In this document: positions 1-49,323 of the stretch, piece by piece
How positions within the stretch are numbered: position 1 is the first letter of the stretch
Layout of the letters: each line of letters starts with the position of its first letter
NCBI GenBank assembly: GCA_964592785.1
Contig: CAZQHU010000006.1
Span: 1 to 56,701 of the forward strand
Source of the DNA: an uncultured Gammaproteobacteria bacterium
GTDB lineage: Bacteria > Patescibacteriota > Patescibacteriia > Magasanikbacterales > UBA922
Reading direction: 5' to 3'
DNA length: 56,701 nt
Position numbers and translations under genes: made by a program
The notes under the pieces: generated by a model
What the model saw: only the letters and a program-made list of their open reading frames with translations
Told to the model about the DNA's origin: nothing
Databases searched by the model: none

Positions 1-908
<908 letters not shown>

Positions 909-960
909 CTACGAAAACACACAATTGTGCTTTCGTTATTTATACTTACTTTTTTTACTT

Positions 961-982
961 GATGTCTTAAATTGTCAAAGTT
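961..982 (-). promoter_or_regulatory. boxA-like rRNA antitermination motif
   Basis: Minus strand reads AACTTTGACAATTTAAG about 55 nt upstream of 23S, resembling rrn boxA (CTTTAACAATTT / CTTTGAAAAC). Confidence 0.45.
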
Positions 983-1221
983 CTGTCCAAAATCTCTTGC
1001 CACAGGTAAACTATAATTTTTATAAATTACCTGCGACCGAAGATTTGAGTTAAAAAAAGACCGCTTCCAAGCGGTCAATTTGACAAAAAAATTTGTCGGC
1101 CTAAGCGCTTGGATTAACTGAGTATAATTTGCTAGAAGTAAACATTGTGGTTTATCTAATTTTATATACCCAGAGGTCCAAGGATATTAGGACATGGTGC
1201 AATCATTTCAGATGCCTGACA

Positions 1222-1250
1222 ATTTTACTATATAAGAAAAACCCTGTCAA
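1222..1250 (-). promoter_or_regulatory. sigma70 promoter upstream of 23S
   Basis: TTGACA (1250-1245), 17 nt, TAAAAT (1227-1222). Confidence 0.75.
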
Positions 1251-1301
1251 GAGGGTCTTCTGTGGATATATAGGGGATAAAAATCACCAAGAAACCAGAG
1301 T

Positions 1302-1574
1302 TCATCTAGCAAAAATTACTACACAATTTCCTACCCCTTCCGCAACATCCTCCACCAAGGGATGTTTTTTTAAATAATCCAGTACTTCCTTTCGCAACTT
1401 CCCTGTGCCAAAACCATAAATTATTCGTACCATGGTTGCTTTTTCTTGATAATTTTTATAAAGAAAAGACTCCAAATTTGCCAGCGCTTCCTCAACATAA
1501 AAACCATGCAAATCCAACTCTGGCATCATCGCGCCCAATTCAACTGCAAAAATTTTGGCTTCTTTGTCGTTCAT
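1302..1574 (-). CDS. Stand-alone Smr-domain protein
   Basis: ELDLHG motif and RIIYGFGTGKLR (Smr consensus IIHGxG); 90 aa. Confidence 0.85.
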   Translation of the reverse strand: MNDKEAKIFAVELGAMMPELDLHGFYVEEALANLESFLYKNYQEKATMVRIIYGFGTGKLRKEVLDYLKKHPLVEDVAEGVGNCVVIFAR

Positions 1575-1777
1575 AATCTACTATTTACTTTTAAAATCAT
1601 TATCCTTATAATAAATACATTAAAATAGTTTCTGAATGGCATTTATTACTTAAATAATATCATAAATAAACTAAATAATTAACTAGTTCGGATATAACTT
1701 GTTGTCTGAAATAGCAAAAAATCTTTTTAAGAATTAATTTTGGATTTTTTTATTTTGGATGCAAAAATTTTAAAAAT

Positions 1778-2389
1778 ATGGGCAACGAATTAACAAGTGC
1801 GCTTGTGCTGGGTCTAATCGGTGGGGTAATTCCGGGACCGGTTTTAACGGCCACATTTACCGAAATTTTACAGTCCGGTATTCCAAAAAGTATGCGGATA
1901 ATTTTATGGGCGATGTTTACTGAAACCGTCGTTGCCCTAATAAGTTTATTGGCACTTTCATCAATGAATTTTTCTGAGAGCTTTTTTCAAGGTCTTTCGA
2001 TAATCGGCGCCGCCATCCTAATTTGGATTTCGACTTCGATATGGAAAGTCCACAAAATTGATAATGAGGAAAAAGTCCATTTCAGTCTTGGAAAAATATC
2101 AGCGATGATAATGGCGAATGGGGTGTTGTGGACTTTCTGGATTACCGTATGTGTGCCAAAAGCGATATTACTTAGTGAAAAGGTGGCTTTTGGCAACTAT
2201 CTTTTTCTACTACTCGTCGAAATCGGATGGCTAATCTCAACTGTCATGGTTGCGGTGGTATTTTCACGATTCAGAAAAATTCTTTCTAATCCAAAGGTTG
2301 TGCCAATTATTTTTAAAATTTTTGCTCTGACATTCATGTATTTCGCTGTCGATATGGTTTATCGTAGCATCAAGTTTTTCCTGACCTAA
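1778..2389 (+). CDS. LysE-family translocator (cassette 1)
   Basis: N-terminal GLIGGVIPGP motif, about six hydrophobic helices, 203 aa. Confidence 0.8.
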   Translation: MGNELTSALVLGLIGGVIPGPVLTATFTEILQSGIPKSMRIILWAMFTETVVALISLLALSSMNFSESFFQGLSIIGAAILIWISTSIWKVHKIDNEEKVHFSLGKISAMIMANGVLWTFWITVCVPKAILLSEKVAFGNYLFLLLVEIGWLISTVMVAVVFSRFRKILSNPKVVPIIFKIFALTFMYFAVDMVYRSIKFFLT

Positions 2390-2441
2390 AAAAATAAAAA
2401 AATCCAAAATTAATAATAAAGAGGAAAGATTTTTCGCTACA

Positions 2442-2595
2442 TCAGACAACACCGAATATGAGGTTCAAAAAATTTGCGTCATTTAATAATCAGCGGAGTG
2501 CAAATTTTTCTCAACCCAAATTTTTGCCCTTTTTCTCTATTGATATATAATAGGGAGGCGGGCAAAAACTTCTCATATTCGGATACGTTATGTGA
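2442..2595 (+). repeat. attC-like site 1
   Basis: TCAGACAAC-ACC-GAATATGAG ... CTCATATTC-GG-ATAC-GTTATGTGA, with two internal hairpins (AAAAATTTGC/GCAAATTTTT and TTTTTGCCC/GGGCAAAAA). Confidence 0.7.
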
Positions 2596-2646
2596 AATAT
2601 TTTTATTTCTACCAATAAATACAATAATAAAGAATAATTTTATTTT

Positions 2647-3162
2647 ATGCCGATAGACCAAAACACAACAGTCCAAGTCATAACCACTACTCAAATTATT
2701 GGCATAGGTGGAGTCTCAGCGATAGCTGGAAGTTTTTTTACACTGGCAGGCATAGGTTTAAAATCATTTTTTGAAGCAAAAGAAAACAAAAAAACAAGAT
2801 TGTTTGAAGCCAGAAAAAATGCTTACTCAAAATTAATAGGTCATTTAAACAATTCTTTTGCAAAATATGAATTTACGGTAGCAAATTATGACCCAGAAAC
2901 AATTTTAAAATCCCTTACAGCATATTCTATTAATTTAGATTATGAGTTTGCCGAGGCATTACTTTTTAGTAGCAATAAAGTAATGCTAAAAATAGAAGAA
3001 TACAGAAAAAAAATATATAGTTTAAAAAGTGCTGTTTTAGCAGATGCACATGAACAAAAATTACAAGTAACTTTTCACAAAAGAGTAGAAGAATCCCAAC
3101 AAACTCATAATGTTGCAAAAGAATTAATCAAAATGATGCGCGAAGAATTGGAAATAAAATAA
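2647..3162 (+). CDS. Hypothetical protein with N-terminal TM helix and helical C-terminus (cassette 2)
   Basis: 171-aa ORF; hydrophobic IIGIGGVSAIAGSFFTLAGIGL; very AT-rich. Confidence 0.7.
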   Translation: MPIDQNTTVQVITTTQIIGIGGVSAIAGSFFTLAGIGLKSFFEAKENKKTRLFEARKNAYSKLIGHLNNSFAKYEFTVANYDPETILKSLTAYSINLDYEFAEALLFSSNKVMLKIEEYRKKIYSLKSAVLADAHEQKLQVTFHKRVEESQQTHNVAKELIKMMREELEIK

Positions 3163-3209
3163 AATTATAAATTGATCAAATTAAATTTATTAATAGAAAT
3201 AAAAATACA

Positions 3210-3827
3210 TCACATAACACGGTATATCTGGCTACACTTTAAAAAATATTTGTAATTTATTTAATAAAAATATATGACAAAAAAATTTCTTCCAATCTTA
3301 CTACTATTTCCATTATTACTAACTGGTTGTAGTTTAAAAACAAACGAGGTAGAAAATGATACCAAGGCGTTTTCGTTAAAACAAGAATGTTTTAAATACA
3401 AAGAAGGCATACAAAAAGAATTTGATAATTTCAACACAAAACAACAACCCCAAGAAAGAGCTGACAATGATGGTTCTACTAGAAAATGTTATGAAAACAA
3501 GGAATTGAAAGAAATTTTTTATAGTAATAAACTCAATTCATGTGCACAAGTAGAAGTCCAAAAAACTTATTGCAACACACCTGATATGAAGTCTTATGGG
3601 GTTTCTTATGAGTACAACATACTTTCTAATGTTCTTACTGGAGAAACACTAGAATATATAAAAACAATTTCTCGTGGGGAAGGTTTTGAAACCCCACAAA
3701 GAACAAAAGAAATAATTGATAGCTATAGATAAATTACAAATATTTTTAGTTCCGCCCATATTTCGCGCACACAAGATAATAATTTAAGGAGTGCGCGAAA
3801 CATCAGATATACACGAACGTTCAGTGA
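3210..3827 (+). repeat. attC-like site 2, split by an inserted gene
   Basis: Left arm TCACATAAC-ACG-GTATATCTG (3210-3230); right arm CAGATATAC-A-CG-AAC-GTTCAGTGA (3804-3827). Confidence 0.6.
3274..3732 (+). CDS. Putative lipoprotein (inside attC-like site 2)
   Basis: Signal peptide with lipobox LLLTG-C; 152 aa with several Cys. Confidence 0.75.
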   Translation: MTKKFLPILLLFPLLLTGCSLKTNEVENDTKAFSLKQECFKYKEGIQKEFDNFNTKQQPQERADNDGSTRKCYENKELKEIFYSNKLNSCAQVEVQKTYCNTPDMKSYGVSYEYNILSNVLTGETLEYIKTISRGEGFETPQRTKEIIDSYR

Positions 3828-3842
3828 CATACCCAAAAAACC

Positions 3843-3870
3843 AAAAATACTCTCTGATGAGAGTATTTTT
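3843..3870 (-). terminator. Intrinsic terminator downstream of tRNA-Leu
   Basis: AAAAATACTCTC-TGAT-GAGAGTATTTTT. Confidence 0.7.
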
Positions 3871-3876
3871 ATTATG

Positions 3877-3958
3877 TGCTGGCGGAGAGACTCGAACTCT
3901 CAATCCTTGCGGAACGTGCTCCTAAGGCACGCGTGTATACCAATTCCACCACGCCAGC
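3877..3958 (-). tRNA. tRNA-Leu(TAG)
   Basis: GCTGGCG acceptor, anticodon arm CGTGC-CT TAG GA-GCACG, long variable arm, TTCGA T-loop; CCA not encoded. Confidence 0.96.
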
Positions 3959-3979
3959 ATATTTAATTGTACTTATTTT

Positions 3980-4060
3980 AAGCAAGCGTGTATACCCGCC
4001 CGCCATCACAAGCATGAGCTTGCTCAGGCGTTGCGGGCGGGCCAATTTCGCCACCGCGGC
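3980..4060 (-). pseudogene. tRNA-Leu-like 5' half with a 47-nt palindrome in the D-loop
   Basis: GCCGCGGTGGCGAAATTGG[insert 4041-3995]TATACACGCTTGCTT, then AT-rich sequence; no 3' half seen in the window. Confidence 0.6.
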
Positions 4061-4195
4061 TTTTAACTGCGATATTAAACCACAAACTAGAAAAAAAATC
4101 AACCCGCCGATGAGGCGGGTTTGACTTTATAAACTTTACCTGCCCGCTCGTACCTCGCATGGTAGGCGGGTGGACTTTTTACTTTTTGAACTCAA

Positions 4196-6478
4196 TTACC
4201 GATCCCTCTTAAAAAATCCACCGCGTTTTCTGTCACCACCGCGATCATTGCCACGACCACCTCGATCAAAACTACGTCCGCCACCATCACGAACAAAAGG
4301 TGCTGGAGGCACATAGCCTTCTGGCTTAGGTTTAAGAGCCTTGATAGAAAGATTAATACGTCCCAAGTTATCTATTTCCTTTACTTGTACTTTTACTTTA
4401 TCACCAAGATTCAAGATATCACCTGGTCGGCCGACACGATTCCAATCAATCTCGCTCACATGGACTAGTCCATCTTGACCAGGAAGAATCTGCACAAAAG
4501 CGCCAAAATCTTCCAAACGAACAACTTCACCTTCATAAATTTCTCCGGCAGTTACTTCGTGAGTAATATCATTGATAATCTTGATAGCTTTCTTCATCGC
4601 CTCGGCATCTACAGAAGTGACCAGCACTCGGCCATCTTGTTCAATATCAATGGAAACTCCTGTTTCCTCGGTAATCTTTTTGATAGTCTTGCCACCCGGG
4701 CCAATAAGGTCGCCGATCTTCTCTGGATCGATGCGCACTGTTTCAATACGTGGGGCATAAGGAGAAAGTTCCTTTCTCGGTTCAGCAATCACACTGGACA
4801 TTTTTTTCAAAATTTCCAATCTAGCATCTTTGGAACGCTTAAAAGTTTCTTCCACAATTTCCCAAGTCAGTCCATGAGTCTTGGTATCCATTTGAATAGC
4901 AGTCACCCCATCCGCAGTACCAGTAATTTTGAAGTCCATACCGCCAACTCCATCTTCCACATCTTGTAAATCAGTCAAAACTTTCCAATTTTTTATATTG
5001 TATTTTTCATCCATTTCAGAAGCCAAACCCATGGCAATACCAGCTACCGGTTTTTTGATTGGTACACCAGCTGCCATAAGTGACAAGGAAGAACCACAAG
5101 TAGAAGCCATAGAAGATGAACCATTTGAACCCAAAACTTCAGAAACCACCCGAATGGCATAGGGAAAATTTTCTTCTTCTGGTAAAACGGGTTCCAACGC
5201 TCTCTCGGCCAAAGCTCCATGACCGATCGCTCGTCTACCCAGTCCTCCAATGCGACCAGTTTCGCCGTAGCTATATGGAGCATCGTTATAATGATGCATA
5301 TAACGTTTGGTTCCTTCTTCTTCCATACTATCCAAGGTTTGCACATCTCCAGGAGCACCCAGAGTGACAATCGACAAAACTTGGGTATCGCCTCTCATAA
5401 ACATTCCTGAACCATGAACACGGGGCAAAAGATCAACTTCTACTTCCAAATTACGAATTTCATCGAGTTTACGACCATCCAATCTTTGATTTTTATCCAA
5501 AATTCTCTTGGTTATCTGCTCACAAACATATTCTTTCACTCTATCCAAAGCTGGTTTTTGCAAATCTTCTTCAAAACCCTGTTCGGTAAGAAGATCAACC
5601 AGACCATGTTTGATTTCGTCCACCATTTCCACTCTCTCAGTGCGAGAAATTTTTACAGAATTAAAAATCTTACTATCAGCCAAACTAGCAATATAATCTT
5701 TAGCAGTTTGTTTAGCTTGTTCAGCAGTTTTTTCTTTATCCTGAGCATCAGCCGAAGGATTCTCTCCCTCTTTGACCAATGAAATTTTTTCTTTGCCAAC
5801 TTCTGCTTGAATCTTATTAATAAAATCAATCACTGGTTGTAATTCTTGACAACCCCATTTCATAGCTTCCACTACTTTATTTTCAGATACTTCCCTAACA
5901 GCGGCCTCGGTCATAACCAATTTATCTGGTGTACCAGCCACTACTAAATCCAAAACATTTCCTTCCACTTGACTGTTCCCAAGATTCAAAATAAATTCCC
6001 CTTTTTCATCCAAACTAACCCGAGCGGCCGCGATCGGACCATCCCAAGGAATCGATGAAACTGCCAAAGCACAACTAGCACCAATAAGACCAACAATAGC
6101 TGGATCATTTTCACCATCAAAAGCCAAAGTGGTGACCACCACCTGCACTTCATTTCTAGTGCGGTCATCAAAAAGTGGACGAATCGCCCGATCAATAAGC
6201 CGTCCCGATAGGACCGCATCATCACTCGGTCGTCCTTCTCGTTTCACAAAACGTGAACCTTTAATTCTGCCGGCAGCATACATTTTTTCTTCAAAATCCA
6301 CAGTTAATGGAAAATAATCCAAACCTACTTTTTCTTCACTACTCTTGGTCACATTGACCATTACCACTGTCTCGCCATATTGAGCAGTACAAGATACAGT
6401 GGACAACAAAGCCAATCTGCCCATTTCTATTGAGAGTTCCCTGCCGCCCCAATTGAGCGACCATTTCTTAATGTTCAT
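4196..6478 (-). CDS. pnp: Polyribonucleotide nucleotidyltransferase (PNPase)
   Basis: FFPLTVD-like, RRAIGHG, SNGSSSMAS and GDMDFK-like motifs, KH and S1 domains, RGG-rich tail. Start trimmed to MNIKK at 6478. Confidence 0.98.
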   Translation of the reverse strand: MNIKKWSLNWGGRELSIEMGRLALLSTVSCTAQYGETVVMVNVTKSSEEKVGLDYFPLTVDFEEKMYAAGRIKGSRFVKREGRPSDDAVLSGRLIDRAIRPLFDDRTRNEVQVVVTTLAFDGENDPAIVGLIGASCALAVSSIPWDGPIAAARVSLDEKGEFILNLGNSQVEGNVLDLVVAGTPDKLVMTEAAVREVSENKVVEAMKWGCQELQPVIDFINKIQAEVGKEKISLVKEGENPSADAQDKEKTAEQAKQTAKDYIASLADSKIFNSVKISRTERVEMVDEIKHGLVDLLTEQGFEEDLQKPALDRVKEYVCEQITKRILDKNQRLDGRKLDEIRNLEVEVDLLPRVHGSGMFMRGDTQVLSIVTLGAPGDVQTLDSMEEEGTKRYMHHYNDAPYSYGETGRIGGLGRRAIGHGALAERALEPVLPEEENFPYAIRVVSEVLGSNGSSSMASTCGSSLSLMAAGVPIKKPVAGIAMGLASEMDEKYNIKNWKVLTDLQDVEDGVGGMDFKITGTADGVTAIQMDTKTHGLTWEIVEETFKRSKDARLEILKKMSSVIAEPRKELSPYAPRIETVRIDPEKIGDLIGPGGKTIKKITEETGVSIDIEQDGRVLVTSVDAEAMKKAIKIINDITHEVTAGEIYEGEVVRLEDFGAFVQILPGQDGLVHVSEIDWNRVGRPGDILNLGDKVKVQVKEIDNLGRINLSIKALKPKPEGYVPPAPFVRDGGGRSFDRGGRGNDRGGDRKRGGFFKRDR

Positions 6479-20634: not shown

Positions 20635-21552
20635 TTATTCATTTTTAGGCAAGCAAGATCGACGTGAAGAACCATTGAAACAATAAAAATTACTTTCACA
20701 ATCACTATTTAGCGTACATTCAGCACATTCCAAACCACTTTCACAATATCCATTAACACAATGTCCACTTTGACACTGTGAATGGGCAGAACATTTGTCG
20801 CCATTTGTACAAATCAATCCGGTACAACCTATCAAACTTGTACTTGGTAACCCTTCTGGACAAGAAGCACCTTTTTGACATGTTCCCTTTTTACATATTG
20901 AATCAATACAGTCAGCATTACTGTCACAAGACGCATTAATATTTGACTCTAGAGGCGCAGTAGGTTCAGTTTCTCCCCCACCCAAACAACTACTAAAATA
21001 GGTTTTTTCATCATTAGATAAAATATCACTATTTGAAACACCCAAAAGACACTGACTCACACAACCATCAAAATCACTATAAAAAGCTTGAAACACCTCC
21101 ACATCCATACTAGTGCAAGCATTATCACAACACTGTTCATCAGCTATCGTTCCACTTCCACCTCCTCCAGCATTCCCACCTCCACCCCCTGTCGTGGCTG
21201 TCCCACCCACACTACTAAACACAAAGTTGGTGATAGCATAGGCCGCGAGAATGATAATCAATCCAATAACTGCAGCAATCACAGTGTCCATACCTTGTTT
21301 GGCCTGTTCTTCTTTGCCATGGGCAGTCATCCAGAGAAACCCGCCAAAAATCATCAGAGCAAAAAAAATGACGCCAATAAGCGATAGCGCCGTACCTATT
21401 ACATTACCAATAAGTGTAGGAAGTTTAAGTCCAGTATTCAAACCGGCTGTTCTAGCAGTTTCCTCCAGACCATAGGCCGCCCAAGTAGTGGTAAATAAAA
21501 CCAAAGAAAAAATCACCACCAAAAAACCAGCGAAGAAAAATTTTTTGGACAT
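20635..21552 (-). CDS. Pilin with Gly linker and large Cys-rich repeat domain
   Basis: GGFLWMTAHGKEEQ core, TTGGGGGNAGGGGSG linker, CxxxxxCxxxxC-type repeats. Confidence 0.82.
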   Translation of the reverse strand: MSKKFFFAGFLVVIFSLVLFTTTWAAYGLEETARTAGLNTGLKLPTLIGNVIGTALSLIGVIFFALMIFGGFLWMTAHGKEEQAKQGMDTVIAAVIGLIIILAAYAITNFVFSSVGGTATTGGGGGNAGGGGSGTIADEQCCDNACTSMDVEVFQAFYSDFDGCVSQCLLGVSNSDILSNDEKTYFSSCLGGGETEPTAPLESNINASCDSNADCIDSICKKGTCQKGASCPEGLPSTSLIGCTGLICTNGDKCSAHSQCQSGHCVNGYCESGLECAECTLNSDCESNFYCFNGSSRRSCLPKNE

Positions 21553-21556
21553 AAGT

Positions 21557-22010
21557 TTATAAATTTATAATTTTTAATTTTAAATTTTTAAACAATCCCT
21601 AATTTTTAATTTTTAAACTATGTGTAATCTTGCTAAAAATCAAAGACAACTCATTCGCCTCTTTCCAAATTGTTCTCAATTCCACTTTAACTTCCGGATT
21701 AACTTCAGCCAAAAGTTCTATCCAATACTTAGTTTCTTGTATTTCTTTTCTAACAATATAAATCTTATTTTTAAAATCATTCCTGGAAACTCCAGCATTT
21801 GCTTCCCTATAATTCGCTCCCACACTTGTACTAGAACGAAGTAACTGATTAATTATATTTTGATTCAAAGCATGAAACTTTAAATTTTTAATTAGAGCAA
21901 TAACTTCCTTACTAAACTTCAAAGTACGTTCTTCCAAATCGTATTGCATAATTAAAAATTTTTTAATTCAAAATTGTTTAAAAATTAATAATTAATAATT
22001 AAAAATTAAA
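21557..22010. mobile_element. Heptamer-repeat inverted-repeat element carrying a four-helix-bundle gene
   Basis: Perfect 14-bp IR AATTTTTAAACAAT (21583-21596) / ATTGTTTAAAAATT (21973-21986) embedded in (T/A)AATTTT repeats. Confidence 0.6.
21599..21949 (-). CDS. Four-helix-bundle protein (23S rRNA IVP / Avd-like family)
   Basis: DLEERTLKFS, QLLRSSTSVGANYREA and ETKYWIELL motifs; 116 aa. Confidence 0.92.
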   Translation of the reverse strand: MQYDLEERTLKFSKEVIALIKNLKFHALNQNIINQLLRSSTSVGANYREANAGVSRNDFKNKIYIVRKEIQETKYWIELLAEVNPEVKVELRTIWKEANELSLIFSKITHSLKIKN

Positions 22011-22427
22011 CTAATCACTTATCTCATTATAAACATTCCCAGTGGTTGCTTGAAATAAATTCACCATTACAAAACGAGTGATACTATAGGCAGCCAAGAT
22101 TATCACCAAACCAATAACTGCTGAAAAAAGAATTTTTCTGGCACTGGAAGCGTTTTCTTCATTACCGCCGGCAGTCATCCATTTGAAACCGGCATAGATC
22201 ACGAGCACTACGGCCACAATACCGAGGAGTCCCAAAGCTACAGAAATTATCTGGGCTACCATATAGCGCACATCCTGATCCCCGAGACCAGTAGCCGCTC
22301 CATATTCTAGACCAAGATAAGGACCCGGATCAGTAGCCTCCACCTGAGCCAAGACTGGCAGAGCCAAGGTAAATAAACTAAAAGCCAAAGCCACTACACC
22401 GACGACGAACATTATTTTTTTTGACAT
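22011..22427 (-). CDS. VirB2/TrbC-like pilin
   Basis: IYAGFKWMTAGGNEENASSARKI core. Confidence 0.85.
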   Translation of the reverse strand: MSKKIMFVVGVVALAFSLFTLALPVLAQVEATDPGPYLGLEYGAATGLGDQDVRYMVAQIISVALGLLGIVAVVLVIYAGFKWMTAGGNEENASSARKILFSAVIGLVIILAAYSITRFVMVNLFQATTGNVYNEISD

Positions 22428-22436
22428 AGCAATTTA

Positions 22437-22555
22437 ATTAAAATTTACAATTTATAATTTACAAACAATCAACAATTCATCAATTATCAATTTTTAAATA
22501 TTGAAAATTGGTTCTTGAAAATTTTTTGGAAATTGTAAATTGAGAATTAAAAACT
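22437..22555. repeat. Gene-less heptamer inverted-repeat element
   Basis: AATTTACAATTT..AATTTACAAACAAT left arm and AAATTGTAAATT right arm. Confidence 0.5.
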
Positions 22556-22654
22556 TATAAAAACTTTCTTTCCTGCCCCACTTCGCATATACGAAATAGG
22601 GCAGGACAAGAAAAGTATATTTACTGTATTCCTCTCTGCTAGCAGAAAGAAATT

Positions 22655-23992: not shown

Positions 23993-24643
23993 TTATTTTA
24001 TCACATTGAAATCACCAGCCACATTTAGGACATCTACCAGCATAAACTTGATCACGGCATAAGCAAAAAAGCAGATCAATAAGCCCACTACTGCTGCCAC
24101 CAAAATATCTCTGCCTTTCTTCACTTTCTCGGCATTACCAAAAGAAAGAATCATGGTAAAACCGCCATAAATGAAATAACCCAAAGCAAAAGTACCCAAA
24201 ATTCCAAAAAATCCTGAAGCAAAACGAATCACCAAAACCAAAAGATCATTCACATCCCTACAAGTGCCACTAAAAGCGCAATCAGGGAGAGCCACATTCT
24301 CTGCTCCTTCAGGTCTTCGATATTGTTCGACCATGAGTGACTGGGTTGGGGTAAAACATTTTTTTTGTTCACCATTCCAAATGCAAACCTTACTACCACT
24401 AGGATTATTTGGCCCACAAAGATCACCAGAAAGTTCATTACAAATGGTAGCATCAATCTTACTCAAACATTTATTTTTATTGGCAAGCCAAAAACATTCG
24501 TTTGATGCCCCACATTCACTATCTTTTAGATTCGCACAATCCGTTTGTTCCTCGGCCTTTACCACTGGAATCTCCAAAGTAAAAAAAATGCCCAACAAAA
24601 ACAAAATCAATCCTAACGTTTTAAAAAAATTTTTTCTAAACAT
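23993..24643 (-). CDS. Pilin with N-terminal Cys-rich repeats
   Basis: Two C-x6-C-x5/7-C-W repeats, then YGGFTMILSFGNAEKVKKG core. Confidence 0.82.
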   Translation of the reverse strand: MFRKNFFKTLGLILFLLGIFFTLEIPVVKAEEQTDCANLKDSECGASNECFWLANKNKCLSKIDATICNELSGDLCGPNNPSGSKVCIWNGEQKKCFTPTQSLMVEQYRRPEGAENVALPDCAFSGTCRDVNDLLVLVIRFASGFFGILGTFALGYFIYGGFTMILSFGNAEKVKKGRDILVAAVVGLLICFFAYAVIKFMLVDVLNVAGDFNVIK

Positions 24644-24659
24644 AAGAAAAAATAAAAAA

Positions 24660-26036
24660 TTACATTGTCTGTTGAATAACTCTGCTTGTAAAATTTATCA
24701 ACTCCATATTTTTTTGCAATTCATTCTTGCGAGGATCGGTAGAAGGCAAAACATAACTATGCACCAGATCAGCCATAGCTTTTTCAGCAGTGGCTATATT
24801 TCGTCCATGATACCAATTTTCTGCTTGCAAAATATAAGCCATAAAGGGAGCTAACAAAGGATCCTCTTTTTGTTTGTTTATTTGTGAACGAAGTGGAGTC
24901 GGTCGTCTCACTGCCTTGGTATATTTTTCAATATTTTCTGCTGAGGTAATGAAATTTATAAAATCCCAAGCTTCATTTTGGTGCTTGGACTTGGCCACCA
25001 CGCTCTGTACCCAATAATTGGCAACATTGAGTGGTTTGTCCTTGTTTAGTTGCAACATTGGTATAACTTCTAGACTCAACTGTGGTGCCAAAGCCCTAAT
25101 ACGAGCATAGTCATAAGCATAGCCAAAGTAAAAAATCACTTTACCACGAGCAAACTCGGTTAGTGCATCACCCATTTTTTCATTCCAAGTATATACATCA
25201 CGATCTTCGCGAGCAAAATCTGTATAAAAACGCAAAGCCGACATCATAGGATGGTTTTCTTTAGCTTGATCCAACCCCGAAGCAAAAGTCACATAATTAC
25301 CATTCGCCACTTGTACCCCACTTTGAAGCATCAATAAAGATAAAATATCAAAAGCCCGTGAAATATTATTGCCGGTCCCCAAAGCCGCTCCGGCCTGAAT
25401 AATATTTTTATCTTTATCAAATTTTCGACCATCTTTCACAGCCGTAAGAAAATCTTCCCAAGTGGCTGGGGGTTCTGGTATGCCAGCCCGATCCAAAAGA
25501 TCTTTATTATAATAAATAGCCATTGTATCAAAAGCCAAAGGCAAACCATAAACCTTCCCCTCAAAAACCACATCATCATACACGGCGCTAACATAATTAT
25601 TCTTGATATCCAAGGCAGTAATCAGTGACACCTGAGTTTGTGTGACTACAGTTTCTTTGAAATATTGTCCTTTTACAGAAATATTGGAAACATTTATAGC
25701 TCTTGGCATTGGCGAAAGTCTAGTCTGATATTTGCGTACTTCACGATTATTAACAGAAATAATATCTGGTGCTACATCATCAGCCAAAGCATTGACAAAC
25801 AGTTCATCAAATTGGTTAATACCAACTTGACGAATATTCACACTTACATAAGGACGGATTTTCTGATACTCTGTTGCCATTTCTTTCAATTGATTTACAT
25901 CATCATAAACTGTCCAAAAATTAAGTTTGACTGGTTTGATGGCTGCTTGCTCTTGCTCAGAAAGACCTTTACAACCAATGCCGACCACACCAAGCATACC
26001 AATCATGAATAATAGCTGTAATATTTTTTTAGTCAT
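24660..26036 (-). CDS. Extracellular solute-binding lipoprotein (sugar ABC SBP-like)
   Basis: Lipobox GIG-C; YGLPLAFDTMAIYYNKDLL and PPATWEDF motifs. Confidence 0.88.
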   Translation of the reverse strand: MTKKILQLLFMIGMLGVVGIGCKGLSEQEQAAIKPVKLNFWTVYDDVNQLKEMATEYQKIRPYVSVNIRQVGINQFDELFVNALADDVAPDIISVNNREVRKYQTRLSPMPRAINVSNISVKGQYFKETVVTQTQVSLITALDIKNNYVSAVYDDVVFEGKVYGLPLAFDTMAIYYNKDLLDRAGIPEPPATWEDFLTAVKDGRKFDKDKNIIQAGAALGTGNNISRAFDILSLLMLQSGVQVANGNYVTFASGLDQAKENHPMMSALRFYTDFAREDRDVYTWNEKMGDALTEFARGKVIFYFGYAYDYARIRALAPQLSLEVIPMLQLNKDKPLNVANYWVQSVVAKSKHQNEAWDFINFITSAENIEKYTKAVRRPTPLRSQINKQKEDPLLAPFMAYILQAENWYHGRNIATAEKAMADLVHSYVLPSTDPRKNELQKNMELINFTSRVIQQTM

Positions 26037-26053
26037 ATAAATTTATATATTTA

Positions 26054-27304
26054 TCAAAATGCCTCGAACACAAAATCGACCAAACCATAACTGCCCAAGA
26101 TAACTATGATACCCAAAGCTGCCCAAAGCATTATCTGCATAGCCATCTTAGTTTTTTCAGCGCTACCGCGACCAGTCATCCAAAGAAACCCGCCATAAAT
26201 AAACATCGCCAAAGCAATACTACCTATTATTTGCATAGCAGTATTTATTATTCTACCAATCACATCAGTTATTTTACTAGTCCCGAGTGGATTTAATTTT
26301 TTAACATCCAAAGCCAAATTATAATCTAAACCACCGGCGTCACGACTGTAAACAGAGCAGTCGGTACCCAAAGGCACTGACTCACAAATATAATTATTTT
26401 CACCTTTTCTCGCTGCGTTGCATTCATTTATATTATTAAAAAAACTAGGATTACAAACTTTTTTACCATCTTTGTCTGTAGTACACAAACAAAAACCACC
26501 CGCCTCTGAACAAAATTTGGAACCAATCAAAGATCCCATATTAAAAGCATTGGGACGATTACCACCCATTACTGTTTCTTTTTTTAACAAATCAATAGAA
26601 AGATTTTGATTTTGATCACCAATTATTAAAGGACTACTACAACTAATATTAAAATGGTACCAATCACCTTCTCCACAATCTAAATAATCCCATAGAGGAA
26701 TATCATCAATATATTTAAAATAATCTGGTAAGATTTTACCACTATTATAATCATTAAAAAAATCTTCTGAATTAGTATCTTCTTTGATTCTTGGTGTGTG
26801 ACACTTGTTATCATCTGTATTTACTTTAAGTTTAGGCACACAACAAGTACCTTGTTGAAGTTTAATAATTTTTTCTTGTAACGAAGCTAATTCTGATTGG
26901 GCGATAGCATCTTCCAAACTTGGTCTAATTCCTTCGGAACCTGCACTATTCATTACCAATTGAGCAGCACCACACAACCAATCATCATAAGTACTTTGGC
27001 CACCAACTGACAAAAGGTGTTTAACAGAAGTATAACCAGACAAAGGTACACAATTTTCAGAAAGTGAAATTGTATAAGCACCCATTATGTTTTCAGGTAC
27101 ATAACCTATTTGACGTGCCACTCCTTCACAAGAAACGGTTGTGCTAATATCCCCACTTAAAAAAACACAACTATTGGATGGTGTTGCGCCCTCATAATAA
27201 ACACAACAATGTGTATCTATTGCAAAAACTTTTTCTTGAAAGAAAAACAAACTAGCGACTAAAACCAAAACCAGCATCCCAAAAATTTTATAAATATTTT
27301 TCAT
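26054..27304 (-). CDS. Large Cys-rich protein with C-terminal pilin core
   Basis: Signal peptide, many Cys, YGGFLWMTGRGSAEK core at the C-terminus; start trimmed to MKNIYK. Confidence 0.8.
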   Translation of the reverse strand: MKNIYKIFGMLVLVLVASLFFFQEKVFAIDTHCCVYYEGATPSNSCVFLSGDISTTVSCEGVARQIGYVPENIMGAYTISLSENCVPLSGYTSVKHLLSVGGQSTYDDWLCGAAQLVMNSAGSEGIRPSLEDAIAQSELASLQEKIIKLQQGTCCVPKLKVNTDDNKCHTPRIKEDTNSEDFFNDYNSGKILPDYFKYIDDIPLWDYLDCGEGDWYHFNISCSSPLIIGDQNQNLSIDLLKKETVMGGNRPNAFNMGSLIGSKFCSEAGGFCLCTTDKDGKKVCNPSFFNNINECNAARKGENNYICESVPLGTDCSVYSRDAGGLDYNLALDVKKLNPLGTSKITDVIGRIINTAMQIIGSIALAMFIYGGFLWMTGRGSAEKTKMAMQIMLWAALGIIVILGSYGLVDFVFEAF

Positions 27305-27314
27305 ATTTATCCTG

Positions 27315-28181
27315 TTAAATACTTGAATCATGATCTAAAAAATATTTGGCTGTTGCCATAAGAGCCCATTTATCACCAGTATCAAAATAACGTCCACTAT
27401 ACTCATAGGCGTAGAAATCCCGACTCTGGGCCAACGTATTGGCCGCATCCAAGAACCAAATCTCGCCGGCTCGTCCACTCTTGGTCTTGGCAAGTATTGG
27501 CCAAATATCTGGTGTCAAAACATATCTCATCCCACCAATAATCAAACCTTGTTTGGATACATCTTTCAAATCTGGTTTTTCAAAAAATTTCTGGACTAAA
27601 TAAGTTTTCCCCATTCCTCGTTCCCCATTCCTCGTTCCCCTCGAATACACATTCCCATACTTCGTCATTTCTTGTTTATTTTTTATTTTTTGTACTCCGA
27701 TCACCGGGGCCTCTACTTCTGCAAAAACTTTTAACAGCTGCTTCACAGCCGGCTCACTACTACCGGCAATAATACTATCACCATCTGACAAAACAAATGA
27801 TTCATTTCCAACTGCTTTTCTAGCCATCAGCAAAGCGTGACCATTACCCAGAGCTTCCCGCTGATAAACATAGGTAATTTTAACTTTTTTGACCAACTCC
27901 ACCAAAGGCGCTAAATAATTATATTTATTTTTTTCTTTCAAAAATTTTTCAAATTTTAAATCACGCGTAAAATGATCAATAATCGCTTTTTTTTGTGGAG
28001 AAATAACAATGATTACCTCGCGAATTCCAGAATCAGCCATTTCCTCTACTAGATACTGAATAACCGGCTTATCCAAAACCGGCAAAAGTTCTTTGGGTAT
28101 GGCTTTGGTAGCAGGCAAAAAACGCGTACCCAAACCCGCGGCCAAAATCACTGCTTTTCGCACTTTTGATGTTCCTAACAT
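27315..28181 (-). CDS. galU: UTP-glucose-1-phosphate uridylyltransferase
   Basis: VILAAGLGTRFLPATKAIPKELLPVLDKP and QREALGNGHA motifs. Confidence 0.9.
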   Translation of the reverse strand: MLGTSKVRKAVILAAGLGTRFLPATKAIPKELLPVLDKPVIQYLVEEMADSGIREVIIVISPQKKAIIDHFTRDLKFEKFLKEKNKYNYLAPLVELVKKVKITYVYQREALGNGHALLMARKAVGNESFVLSDGDSIIAGSSEPAVKQLLKVFAEVEAPVIGVQKIKNKQEMTKYGNVYSRGTRNGERGMGKTYLVQKFFEKPDLKDVSKQGLIIGGMRYVLTPDIWPILAKTKSGRAGEIWFLDAANTLAQSRDFYAYEYSGRYFDTGDKWALMATAKYFLDHDSSI

Positions 28182-36142: not shown

Positions 36143-37525
36143 TCAGATGTTATTGACGTATAATCTTTCTTTTATAGCTTTGATTTCTTGCTTGAGTTTG
36201 GCATCGTTTTCTATATCAGTACCGATCTTGGTGTGGGCGTGCATGGCGGTAGTATGGTCGCGTCCGCCCAGCTCTGAACCGATCGCGGGATAGGACATCT
36301 TGAGTTCTTCGCGCATGAGAAACATGATGATCTGTCGAGGAGTGGCCAAACGTTTTTCTCGGCTCTTGCCAGTGATGTCTTCAATAGCTACATCATAAAA
36401 TTCGGAAACTGTGAAAACCAATTCTTTGGGTGTGAGTGAACGTTTCATGCTTTGAGCTTCAAAACTGGAGAGAATGGATTTGATGCTTTCTTTATTTGGT
36501 TCAATGTTTTTTAGTTGATGAAAAGCAATCAATTTATTGAGTGCGCCTTCCAGTTCACGAATATTACTTTGAACAGTGGAAGCAACTAGGTTTAATAATT
36601 CTGGACTTAAATTGAAATTGTTTTCTTGACTGCGACGGCCCAAGATCGCGATGCGAGTTTCCAAATCAGGAGCAGCGATGTCTGCGATCATCCCCCACTC
36701 AAAACGAGAACGTAAGCGATCTTCTAGAGCAGGAATAGCTTTGGGTGGCCGGTCAGAAGTGAGTACCACTTGTTTGCCTTGTTGGTGAAGTTCATTGAAA
36801 GTATGAAAAAATTCTTCTTGAGTTTGTTCTTTGCCACCAATAAACTGTATATCATCGATCAAAAGCAAATCTACATTGCGATAGCGATCTTTGAATTCTT
36901 TTCCTCGTCCTTCTTTGACCGAAGAAATAAATTCATTGGTAAATTTTTCTGAAGTAACATAAAGAATTTTGGTGAGAGGATTGTTTTCCAGCATAGCATG
37001 CCCCACTGCTTGCAGGAGATGGGTTTTGCCTAGCCCTACCCCGCCGTAAATATAGAGAGGATTATAAGCTTCGCCCGGACGATTGGTGACTGCTTGAGCT
37101 GCTGCATGGGCCAATTCATTATGTTTGCCAACAATAAAATTGGCAAAAGTGTATTTGGGATTGAGACCAAACTTCGCGCCCAAAGATTTGGCAGGCTGAG
37201 AATAAATCGGATTATTGATAGTAGAAACAGCCGGAGCTTCTTCGCTCAAGGTGCATTCTTTTTCTTCGATCATCTTCATGTTTTCAACGCGATATTCTAT
37301 TTTTTTTACCGGTTTATTGGTAACACGCTCAATAGTTTTGACAATATCTGAATTGTATTTTTTTTCCAACCAACTCTTGGTAAAAGTATTGGGAACGCAA
37401 ATAGTCACTTGTCCGCCATTATAATTGGCAATGCCGGTATTTTTAAACCAAGTTGTAAAATTAGCTTTGGAAATTTTTAGTTCGAAATCAGCCAAGACTG
37501 ACTGCCAGATCTCATAATTAGTCAT
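36143..37525 (-). CDS. dnaA: Chromosomal replication initiator DnaA
   Basis: YNPLYIYGGVGLGKTHLL, IDDIQF and GGRDHTT motifs. Confidence 0.99.
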   Translation of the reverse strand: MTNYEIWQSVLADFELKISKANFTTWFKNTGIANYNGGQVTICVPNTFTKSWLEKKYNSDIVKTIERVTNKPVKKIEYRVENMKMIEEKECTLSEEAPAVSTINNPIYSQPAKSLGAKFGLNPKYTFANFIVGKHNELAHAAAQAVTNRPGEAYNPLYIYGGVGLGKTHLLQAVGHAMLENNPLTKILYVTSEKFTNEFISSVKEGRGKEFKDRYRNVDLLLIDDIQFIGGKEQTQEEFFHTFNELHQQGKQVVLTSDRPPKAIPALEDRLRSRFEWGMIADIAAPDLETRIAILGRRSQENNFNLSPELLNLVASTVQSNIRELEGALNKLIAFHQLKNIEPNKESIKSILSSFEAQSMKRSLTPKELVFTVSEFYDVAIEDITGKSREKRLATPRQIIMFLMREELKMSYPAIGSELGGRDHTTAMHAHTKIGTDIENDAKLKQEIKAIKERLYVNNI

Positions 37526-37623
37526 AATTTGAATATTTTGTAAGTAAATAGTAAGGCAGAAGCTATTTTAGCATAAAAATAATATTTGAAAAATGGCTAA
37601 AAATAGCCAAAAAGTGAGTAAAA

Positions 37624-37652
37624 TGGGGACAAACTGTGGATTCTGTGGATAT
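37624..37652. promoter_or_regulatory. Degenerate DnaA boxes upstream of dnaA
   Basis: TGGGGACAA, TGTGGATTC, TGTGGATAT. Confidence 0.6.
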
Positions 37653-37686
37653 TTACCAATTTAGTATTAATTTTTTGTTCAATTAC

Positions 37687-37715
37687 TTGACAAATAAAAT
37701 TGGATATAATATAAT
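37687..37715 (+). promoter_or_regulatory. rpmH operon promoter
   Basis: TTGACA-17-TATAAT. Confidence 0.75.
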
Positions 37716-37738
37716 CACCTCACTTTTAATAATGAACT

Positions 37739-37915
37739 ATGCCAAAAAGAACTTATCAACCAAAAAAGAGACACAGAGCCAAATCCCATGGTTTTTTGGC
37801 TAAAATGAGCACAAAAGGCGGTCGTAGTGTATTGGCTAGACGTCGTGCCAAAGGTAGAAAAAAGCTGTCCACTAGTGATGAATTGAAAGGCAAAAGAACC
37901 AGAAAAACTCGTTAA
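37739..37915 (+). CDS. rpmH: 50S ribosomal protein L34 (not in the ORF track), with C-terminal extension
   Basis: [58 protein letters not shown], 58 aa, translated by hand. Confidence 0.97.
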
Positions 37916-37989
37916 TTTTGCTAAAATCAGCCAAAAACCTCGTTTTAGCGAGGTTTTTGTGTTATAATAGTCTTGGTTTAAGTGAGAGT

Positions 37990-38370
37990 ATGCTCCCCAG
38001 AGAAAACAGATTAACCAAAATGAAAGATTTTGAAATTCTCTTTAAAGAAGGTCGGTTTTTTAGTGCTCCTCTGCTTCAGGCCAAAGTTTGGAAAATAGAT
38101 CCAAACAAATATCCTCGTCGTAAGTATTCTTTAGAAGATTTGAAAATTGGTTTTACTGTCGGTCTCAAAATAGACAAGCGAGCTGTGGTTCGTAATCGTT
38201 TGAAACGGCAAATGCGCGAAATTGTCCGCCTGCTTTTGAAATCAGATAAATTAAAATCTGGTTTGATGCTACTTTTAATCGCTAAAAAAGAAATGATTGG
38301 CAAAGAATATGGAGAGATTGAAAAATCTGTGATTGAAGTGCTGAGGAAAAGTAATGTTTTGAATTTTTAA
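37990..38370 (+). CDS. rnpA: RNase P protein component
   Basis: MLPRENRL, KIGFTVGLKI and AVVRNRLKRQMRE (RNR motif). Confidence 0.95.
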   Translation: MLPRENRLTKMKDFEILFKEGRFFSAPLLQAKVWKIDPNKYPRRKYSLEDLKIGFTVGLKIDKRAVVRNRLKRQMREIVRLLLKSDKLKSGLMLLLIAKKEMIGKEYGEIEKSVIEVLRKSNVLNF

Positions 38371-38460
38371 TTTGAAATTTAGAATTTTTAAACAATTTTA
38401 AATAATTCAATATTTTAATATTAAAAATTGTTTTTAAATTAAAAATTAAAAATTTTAAAT
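38365..38460. repeat. Gene-less heptamer inverted-repeat element
   Basis: AATTTTTAAACAAT at 38383-38396 is identical to the left arm at 21583; right arm ATTGTTTTTAAATT at 38427-38440. Confidence 0.6.
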
Positions 38461-38461
38461 T

Positions 38462-38728
38462 GTGAAAAGTTTTTTTAAAAAATTATTATCTTTACCACGC
38501 TATCCATTATTATGGGTGATAAAGCTGTATCAGCACACAATCTCTCCAGATCATGGCTGGTTTAAGTTCTTGCATCCGCACGGTTATTGTCGCTACTATC
38601 CCACTTGTAGCGAGTATGGATACCAAGTAATAAAAAAAAGAGGAATAATTATTGGTATCTCCAAAACTATTTGGCGAATTTTGCGTTGCAATCCTTGGAG
38701 TAGGGGTGGGATAGATTTGCCCCAATAA
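38462..38728 (+). CDS. yidD: Membrane protein insertion efficiency factor
   Basis: [10 protein letters not shown] and [11 protein letters not shown] motifs; follows rpmH-rnpA. Confidence 0.95.
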
Positions 38729-48705: not shown

Positions 48706-48827
48706 AATATCATGAAAACATTAAAACAAAAAAACATTAAAACAATTATAACATTTTTTAGTTTTTTTCTAAAACAAAAAACAGTCTTTCGACCGCTTGT
48801 TTTTATTTTTAAATTTTAAATTAAAAA

Positions 48828-49277
48828 TTATAAATTTTTTTTATTATTTTTAAATAATAAAAGTGTTACACCCCCCACAATCATTACATCTGCCAGATTT
48901 ATAATTCCAGTTAAGACTCGTAGGTAGTCTATAGTCACTCCAAATAAGATGCGGTCAATATAATTAGACAGGGCGCCAAGTATTATCAAATTTATTGCCA
49001 AGAACTTAGAACTCTGAATTTTGAACTCCGAACTTTTTACCAACCAAAAAATTAAACCTAATAAAATGAATGGTGTTACAAAAACAATTAACCAATTTGG
49101 CACTGGTAAAGAAAAAGCAATTCCTGTGTTGGCATAATATTCCCAACCCAACCAATTTTTCCAAAGATAAAAAGCTTGTTCTGGATTTAGACGAGCAAAA
49201 TATTTTAGTATTTGATCCAAACCAAACAAAAACCCGCTTATTAAAATATAAATTATTAAGCGGGTATTTTTATTCAT
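48828..49277 (-). CDS. lspA: Lipoprotein signal peptidase
   Basis: LDQILK, NTGIAFS, GALSNYIDR and INLADVMI motifs. Confidence 0.9.
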   Translation of the reverse strand: MNKNTRLIIYILISGFLFGLDQILKYFARLNPEQAFYLWKNWLGWEYYANTGIAFSLPVPNWLIVFVTPFILLGLIFWLVKSSEFKIQSSKFLAINLIILGALSNYIDRILFGVTIDYLRVLTGIINLADVMIVGGVTLLLFKNNKKNL

Positions 49278-49323
49278 AGTTTTATCAAGACCCATAAGCT
49301 ATTAGCTACGAGCTAAAAGTTAT

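Follow-up and report, generated by a model that had tools for sequence, protein, structure and literature searches.

A small gene for a four-helix-bundle protein, lying between two pilin genes in a 56,701-nt stretch of DNA (contig CAZQHU010000006.1, positions 1 to 56,701; hereafter the window), is probably one copy of a widespread type of promoter-less, sense-oriented PF05635 cassette, a type that corresponds, in operon spacers, to the ORF-carrying intervening sequences (IVSs) of 23S rRNA. In the main Patescibacteria subfamily of these cassettes, each arm consists of four AATTTNN heptamers and the core AAACAAT, to which about another 25 nt are added that reach to or into the ends of the ORF. 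The spacer is filled by the arms all the way between the preceding stop codon and the next start. Changes in one arm go with changes in the other, and the arms diverge along with the protein; close strains differ in which cassettes they have, and cassettes are also met in unrelated surroundings. What is new here is an ORF-bearing type of IVS that lies outside rRNA and has a defined arm grammar.

The cassette and its surroundings

The cassette in question (cassette A; 21553-22010, minus strand) makes up the entire spacer between two T4SS-type pilin genes of family PF18895: a 138-aa pilin upstream (22011-22427, minus strand; stop at 22011-22013) and a 305-aa pilin with a Cys-rich C-terminus downstream (20635-21552, minus strand; ATG at 21550-21552). 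Both are members of a long same-strand array of pilin genes, and the cassette gene (21599-21949, minus strand; 116 aa, pI 9.5) is encoded on the same strand as its two neighbours. Its product matches PF05635 at 61 bits (cutoff 33.8) and TIGR02436 at 78.9 bits (cutoff 24), an assignment with which the AF2 model and Foldseek agree, so that the description of an IVP/Avd-like gene interrupting a pilin array, given earlier by a sequence-only reading of this DNA, is borne out. For the 305-aa pilin, no close orthologue was found besides identical short contigs.

The gene is framed by an inverted repeat with 61-nt arms (21562-21622 and 21947-22007) that are 77% complementary; the perfect 14-bp inverted repeat noticed in the sequence-only reading (21583-21596 and 21973-21986) is exact, and the full repeat is longer. 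The outer 35 nt of each arm are four AATTTNN heptamers plus AAACAAT. The left (upstream) arm of this minus-strand element (21973-22007) reads AATTTTT AATTATT AATTATT AATTTTT AAACAAT, with two mismatches to the pattern, and the right (downstream) arm (21562-21596), read on the plus strand, is AATTTAT AATTTTT AATTTTA AATTTTT AAACAAT, with none. The inner part of the left arm (21947-21972, minus strand) includes the ATG of the four-helix-bundle gene, that of the right arm (21597-21622, minus strand) overlaps the last seven codons and the stop of the same gene, and both are paired in the MFE and centroid folds. The left arm begins 3 nt after the stop of the 138-aa pilin gene, the right arm ends 9 nt ahead of the ATG of the 305-aa pilin gene, and the flanks are about 90% A+T. 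The 14-mer AATTTTTAAACAAT is found exactly at 21583-21596 (plus), 21973-21986 (minus) and 38383-38396 (plus), that is, three times in the window where 0.02 matches are expected; with up to two mismatches, it is found 21 times in the window as against 6.5 expected. A scan for promoters and terminators at cassette A returned matches no commoner than in shuffled sequence, with none in the left arm.

A location inside 23S rRNA is ruled out for cassette A, as the sole rRNA in the window lies at 1-908 (minus strand). This is the 5' part of a 23S rRNA gene running off the left end, in which 645 model positions are spread over 908 nt, leaving about 260 nt extra; a GC-rich palindromic stretch at about 60-170, which is not of the heptamer type, explains part of this additional length. 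A further GC-rich hairpin (22571-22606; adjacent 18-nt arms, 83% complementary) follows the 171-aa pilin gene and may be a terminator inside the pilin array. At the matching place in locus L086 (7890-7950), a different GC-rich hairpin is present.

Gene-less hairpins carrying the same arms

When the whole window was searched with the 35-nt pattern (AATTTNN)x4-AAACAAT, allowing up to three mismatches, seven matches were obtained, as against none in 100 shuffles. These are the two arms of cassette A, the paired arms of two gene-less hairpins and one solo arm. The first hairpin (hairpin B; 22435-22555, minus strand) lies 5' of the 138-aa pilin gene and has arms at 22435-22469 and 22521-22555 with two and three mismatches, respectively, which agrees with the diverged gene-less copy placed at 22437-22555 in the sequence-only reading. 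The second (38362-38461, plus strand) lies between rnpA (37918-38370) and yidD (38462-38728), and both of its arms (38362-38396 and 38427-38461, with a 30-nt spacer) match the pattern without mismatch. The earlier description of this site, in which the left 14-mer and a 12/14 right arm occupy 38383-38440, was reproduced: the partner of AATTTTTAAACAAT at 38427-38440 has two mismatches and the arms are 30 nt apart. On its left, this hairpin runs into the stop of rnpA, and on its right a single nucleotide separates it from the GTG of yidD; together with the short distances at cassette A, this supports the earlier remark that the copies abut gene starts and stops. The solo arm (48802-48836, minus strand; two mismatches) is decayed and overlaps the stop of a gene at 48828-49295 (minus strand).

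The rnpA-yidD hairpin is the strongest local hairpin in the window and shares a 17-mer with the left arm of cassette A. The 30 nt between its arms are similar to the inner-left segment of cassette A, and the hairpin therefore has the appearance of a cassette from which the ORF has been lost. About 20 gene-less hairpins with heptamer arms were counted in 450 kb of scanned loci, for example at L006 107-248, at L049 2074-2199 and, as a pair, on either side of an atpF-like gene in L041. The gene-less forms, which keep both arms, are probably ORF-less derivatives and are not empty target sites; true unoccupied sites are plain spacers of 7-17 nt, as at site A of L086 and at 26037-26053 of the window. 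The earlier idea of filled and empty forms therefore holds in so far as both the window and other genomes contain versions that have these arms but no gene; such versions are not vacant sites.

Several arrangements were seen in passing. The second hairpin of the window sits inside a conserved operon, in a region (36143-38728) where dnaA (minus strand) is followed by rpmH-rnpA-yidD (plus strand); the cumulative GC skew of the window has its minimum near 35-36 kb, which fits a replication origin nearby. In L004, L018, L033, L064 and L070, a gene-less heptamer hairpin lies directly 3' of a gene-bearing cassette, so that the elements are in tandem. L027 is a further pilin locus rich in these elements: over some 4.3 kb (89-4337), the 35-nt arm pattern is matched exactly six times, and a pilin gene there has arms on both sides.

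Cassette architecture across the family

A protein search retrieved 1,314 relatives at about 65% identity, of which those with a named source are nearly all from Patescibacteria. For a survey of the family, the flanks of 88 genes were read in 80 loci from Patescibacteria genomes; the upstream flank was aligned locally to the reverse-complemented downstream flank, giving an inverted-repeat score, and 84 cassettes were compared with 167 other genes in the same loci as controls. The median score is 43 for the cassettes and 16 for the control genes, 88% of the 84 cassettes exceed the 95th percentile of the controls, and 83% of the cassettes have z > 3 relative to dinucleotide shuffles. The flanks also show a higher lag-7 autocorrelation (0.44 for cassettes vs. 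0.31 for controls).

The arms occupy positions -56 to -8 from the ATG and +8 to +56 past the stop, and the most frequent number of heptamers outside the core is exactly four, which holds for 29 of 47 arms on the left and 24 of 33 on the right. The median gap is 3 nt from the upstream stop to the arm and 9.5 nt from the arm to the next start. In 62 of the 80 loci, the genes on both sides point the same way as the cassette, and in a single one both are opposed. Other subfamilies have other units, for example GGAAATTA and GTGAANN (both in L086), AATGACG (L078) and GTTTCCA (L026), and two examples from Bacteroidota have inverted short repeats, one of them within an RND efflux operon. The cassette architecture is therefore conserved family-wide.

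In L007 (923-1318), a divergent four-helix-bundle gene with the motif NIAEGYGR, missed by the initial tblastn search, is flanked by inverted AT-only repeats with AAAATAA units, and the architecture therefore extends to further subfamilies. Unrelated GC-rich inverted repeats, such as GTGACGTTTATCTCACGGCCGTGAGGCAAACGTCAC, flank other genes in L069 (4577-5228) and L029 (4517-5393) and represent a different repeat family of Patescibacteria.

Pairing and covariation of the arms

In a core-anchored alignment of 19 elements, 85.8% of the cells pair between the arms, and this pairing collapses when the partner arm is slid by one column. Changes on both sides are seen in 51 cells vs. 29 in shuffles, with none of 500 shuffles reaching 51. 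Every change in the core is matched by a compensating one in the other arm (as in AATCAAT/ATTGATT). The two variable heptamer positions pair in only 42-54% of elements vs. 26-35% between elements, and some elements, such as L025 (42/43), show nearly perfect pairing. On the sense strand, mismatches of the G:U type (107) and of the A:C type (96) occur in similar numbers; in view of this lack of G:U bias, pairing could matter as DNA, or the arms could be protein sites only. The symmetry of the arms is thus real, and it may reflect pairing in RNA, pairing in DNA or paired protein sites.

Both the MFE and the centroid fold pair the arms of cassette A across the ORF. The fold energies relative to shuffles (z = -1.8, -1.8 and -0.75) give weak thermodynamic support, because the stems consist of A and U only. 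Arm similarity tracks protein similarity among the cassettes (Spearman 0.36; Mantel 0/500), and paralogs within one genome or locus are 49-65% identical and have different arms.

The four-helix-bundle protein

To our knowledge, PF05635 proteins have had no accepted role since their discovery in Leptospira rRNA in 1993, although the family is large, with 11,900 clusters at 50% identity in a profile search (E ≤ 0.001). The AF2 model of the 116-aa protein (pLDDT 93.8) predicts four helices, at residues 6-21, 30-51, 56-83 and 85-114. Foldseek aligned it to 2RLD (TM 0.79-0.84), 2GSC (about 0.8) and the Avd structures 4DWL and 8UB7 (about 0.75), and a sequence search against structures retrieved 2RLD alone; the 2RLD and 2GSC entries have five chains each. 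Apart from PF05635, the only Pfam match is a sub-cutoff one to Cbl_N (18 bits vs. 25), and PADLOC defence-system profiles gave no match for the protein.

The conserved family motif GxxRxxxSxxxNxxE (Lin 2006; Zhang 2013) is present as R38-x3-S42-x3-N46-x2-E49, with the leading G replaced by N. In an alignment of 28 family members, in which the mean column identity is 62%, residues T41, S42, A45, N46, Y47, E49, A50 and N51 are invariant and V43 and G44 nearly so (at least 90%). The median pI of the family (9.4) is close to that of the cassette A protein. The dN/dS ratio is 0.055 for the cassette A protein relative to its counterpart in L084, and 0.09 and 0.095 in two further protein pairs, and the four-helix-bundle protein is therefore under strong purifying selection (dN/dS about 0.05-0.1).

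Presence, absence and age of the cassettes

Three loci (L086, L087 and L088) are orthologous to window positions 30436-21980 at 90-96% nucleotide identity, and presence/absence variation relative to L086 was found at three sites, as a comparison proposed in the sequence-only reading had anticipated. At site A, cassette A (21553-22010) stands where L086 has 7 nt (TTGAATT) from a pilin stop to the next pilin ATG. At site B, the window has gene-less hairpin B, and L086, L087 and L088 have a 129-aa four-helix-bundle gene of another subfamily; the same type of gene is present at site B of L001, and the contig of L083 ends 26 nt past the stop of the 171-aa pilin gene. At site C, the window has an unoccupied 17-nt spacer between a pilin gene and an SBP gene (26037-26053, minus strand), and L086 holds a 117-aa four-helix-bundle cassette of about 446 nt. 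L092 is in the same state as the window. The sequence-only reading had named two outcomes that would speak against it, an absence of such variation and a 14-mer frequency at the background of AT-rich DNA; variation is present at all three sites, and the 14-mer is far above background, so that neither outcome was observed.

Window and L086 differ in a further respect beside two of these sites. The pilin downstream of site A is just 65% identical and the pilin upstream of site C 74% identical, and identity is 92-93% on either side of site B. Because identity drops beside sites A and C, allelic (homologous) replacement, rather than excision or insertion, may explain both. Moreover, the target duplications suggested earlier as a check are not evident at the filled/empty junctions of the compared loci, for which global alignment was unhelpful in such AT-rich sequence, and no near-identical copies of a cassette within a genome were seen among these loci. 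These two observations thus give no sign of active transposition.

The behaviour of the pilin genes themselves was recorded in the comparison of window positions 23993-27331 with L086 3159-6496. The pilins keep their C-terminal transmembrane part and swap their N-terminal regions between strains (425 vs. 221 aa; 216 vs. 276 aa), the genes that flank the swapped pilins are 90-96% identical, and the drops in identity adjoin four-helix-bundle cassettes.

In L084, an 83% identical protein is encoded between the corresponding pilins at a dS of about 2; DNA identity of the pilins is only 65%, yet each arm there retains an exact copy of the 14-mer. Persistence at site A through such divergence looks more like that of a retained gene than that of a restless element, and cassette A is old and stable at this site. 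L054 and L063, which encode 90% identical proteins, are about 88% identical in DNA from arm to arm; their flanks are unrelated, and similarity stops at the arms. Protein pairs at 72-86% identity are likewise mostly in unrelated contexts. As judged from these alignments, the L054/L063 pair offers independent evidence for movement. The earlier proposal of a transposase-free mobile element is thus upheld in that gene and arms form one unit with no transposase, but replacement may explain two of the three polymorphic sites, and the cassette at site A is old.

Relation to known systems

The closest parallels are the IVSs in the 23S rRNA of Coxiella, Leptospira and other bacteria, which resemble cassette A in size (about 430-460 nt), in their sense-oriented PF05635 ORF and in the inverted-repeat stem around it. 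The Coxiella IVS is 428 nt long, and its inverted-repeat stem encloses a sense-oriented S23p (PF05635) ORF (PMC4990558). Just upstream of the ORF are three tandem GACAGAT heptamers whose copy number varies among strains, RNase III cleaves the stem at the first repeat, and the stem is processed even though the ORF is decaying and apparently untranslated (PMC4990558). Tandem heptamers upstream of the ORF are thus common to both, being four AATTTNN units plus core in cassette A. The 23S IVSs are also sporadically distributed, and they have long been proposed to be mobile; as cited in PMC4990558, Ralph & McClelland (1993) suggested a mobile element in which the ORF serves mobility. However, cassette A lies between protein-coding genes and not in helix 25 or 45, has heptamer arrays on both arms in a fixed 4+1 count, and encodes a protein under strong purifying selection rather than a decaying one. 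RNase III processing is described for the Coxiella IVS and, for cassette A, is a prediction by analogy. Elsewhere, PF05635 ORFs have been found in rRNA insertions of CPR bacteria (PMC11270868), and PF05635 genes have been noted between cas genes (PMC3936711).

Avd is a basic, nucleic-acid-binding pentamer that works with the reverse transcriptase of diversity-generating retroelements (DGRs), and we know of no DGR avd gene that is bracketed by inverted heptamer arrays. The cassette A protein shares with Avd (4DWL, 8UB7) the four-helix-bundle fold, at a TM of about 0.75, and basic character, but is only about 12% identical to it. No reverse transcriptase, as judged from Pfam matches, and no template or variable repeats were detected beside the gene or in the orthologous 9 kb. 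Membership of cassette A in the Avd/DGR group is ruled out, as no reverse transcriptase is nearby and its neighbours are pilins.

REP/REPIN-RAYT systems, in which the RAYT protein is a catalytically equipped Y1 transposase, are similar to cassette A in that a single gene lies between inverted copies of a short repeat and gene-less inverted doublets occur in spacers; they differ in that the cassette A protein has no recognisable nuclease or recombinase and in that the arms are tandem heptamers, not single palindromes. The 116-aa protein is not a RAYT/Y1 (HUH) transposase, as no transposase domain is among its profile matches. MITEs, too, occur between genes as small units without a gene of their own, ending in terminal inverted repeats, and exist alongside gene-bearing relatives. 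Unlike MITEs, the cassette lacks a parent element with a transposase; in the loci compared, where no target-site duplication was seen and paralogs within a genome are 49-65% identical and so not near-identical, assignment to MITEs or DNA transposons is not supported.

Tandem 7-nt units in spacers near start codons are also known from Xanthomonas, where intergenic GGGAATC heptamers include about 70 convergent pairs able to form stem-loops (PMC4692102), and from Beggiatoaceae, cyanobacteria and Bacteroidetes, where the repeat is TAACTGA (PMC4679880). These sequences are unrelated to the arms described here, and PMC4692102 and PMC4679880 draw no link to PF05635. In a full-text literature search, no publication turned up that connects PF05635 genes with heptamer arrays in their flanks.

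Possible mode of action and alternative explanations

If cassette A is an operon-spacer counterpart of the rRNA IVSs, it would be transcribed by read-through of the host operon, because the left arm has no promoter-like site and the sense bias is 62:1. The arms may then pair in the RNA to form a stem of about 55 bp, which would bring the stop of the preceding gene to within about 12 nt of the next start and so restore the state of an unoccupied spacer (7-17 nt). By analogy with rRNA IVSs, RNase III would cut the stem, and closing and cutting of the stem would make the insertion nearly harmless to the host. Read-through, arm pairing and RNase III processing are suggested by the architecture of the cassettes and by this analogy. 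The basic protein, whose solved relatives are pentameric, may recognise the five-unit arrays of its own arms; we infer such recognition from the fixed 4+1 count, the AATTT phase, the co-divergence of arms and protein and the pentameric relatives. Recognition could serve upkeep of the cassette or its spread through host enzymes, which would be needed because the cassette encodes no nuclease or recombinase, and the gene-less hairpins would be derivatives from which the ORF was lost.

Another reading, which appears unlikely, is that the protein is a resident DNA-binding regulator, with the heptamer arrays as operators that autoregulate the gene or insulate its neighbours and the strain differences due to recombination in a hypervariable pilin locus. 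The 7-nt phase of AATTT and the core are indeed conserved more than strict pairing, the mismatches have no RNA wobble bias, the arms co-diverge with the protein, the cassette has been kept in place under purifying selection in a relative with a dS of about 2, and the drops in flank identity adjoin sites A and C. However, such a regulator would have to account for the same cassette in unrelated flanks (L054 and L063), for cassettes in dozens of unrelated operons, including the Bacteroidota RND efflux operon, and in rRNA helices, and for gene-less hairpins in unrelated operons (rnpA-yidD and the flanks of the atpF-like gene in L041). Moreover, a 62:1 sense bias and spacer-filling arms are unexpected for an ordinary regulator gene with its own promoter, and the upstream side has nothing resembling a promoter.

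That only the RNA counts, with the long stem as an RNase III site or an mRNA stabiliser between cistrons and the ORF as incidental cargo, as has been suggested for S23p of Coxiella, is quite improbable given a dN/dS of 0.05-0.1, a mean column identity of 62% in 28 family members and the lack of a G:U bias; generic double-stranded RNA needs neither a fixed number of heptamers nor a conserved core. In favour of this idea, the S23p ORF of Coxiella decays and appears untranslated while its stem is still processed (PMC4990558), ORF-less hairpins persist in operon spacers, and the predicted fold has a stem closed by the arms. That the repeats arose by chance in intergenic DNA of low complexity and high A+T content, and are unrelated to the gene, is hardly conceivable: the A+T content of the flanks and the weak fold z-scores would be in keeping with it, but the three 14-mers, the seven matches to the 35-nt pattern as against none and the excess of 88% of 84 cassettes over the control genes rule it out, and L084 has kept the arms although its synonymous sites are saturated.

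Perspectives

The cassette reading favoured here, that of an operon-spacer counterpart of the ORF-bearing 23S IVSs, has a wider form, which is speculative and rather doubtful at present. Stand-alone PF05635 proteins might be sequence-specific end-binders of a large, unrecognised class of enzyme-free mobile elements, with a pentamer reading the five heptamers of each arm. Spread would then depend on host enzymes or on a reverse transcriptase acting in trans, as for Avd, and paired arms would render insertions harmless in operon spacers and rRNA helices; the rRNA IVSs, the ORF-less forms and possibly the Avd of DGRs would be offshoots of this class.

The finding connects the IVSs of rRNA with a cassette of general occurrence whose home is the operon spacer, and the match between a fixed five-unit array on each side and a pentameric protein makes the role of PF05635 directly testable. 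In addition, since PF05635 genes insert between unrelated operon genes, associations drawn from their neighbourhoods, such as that with cas loci (PMC3936711), may reflect hitch-hiking and not a function in common.
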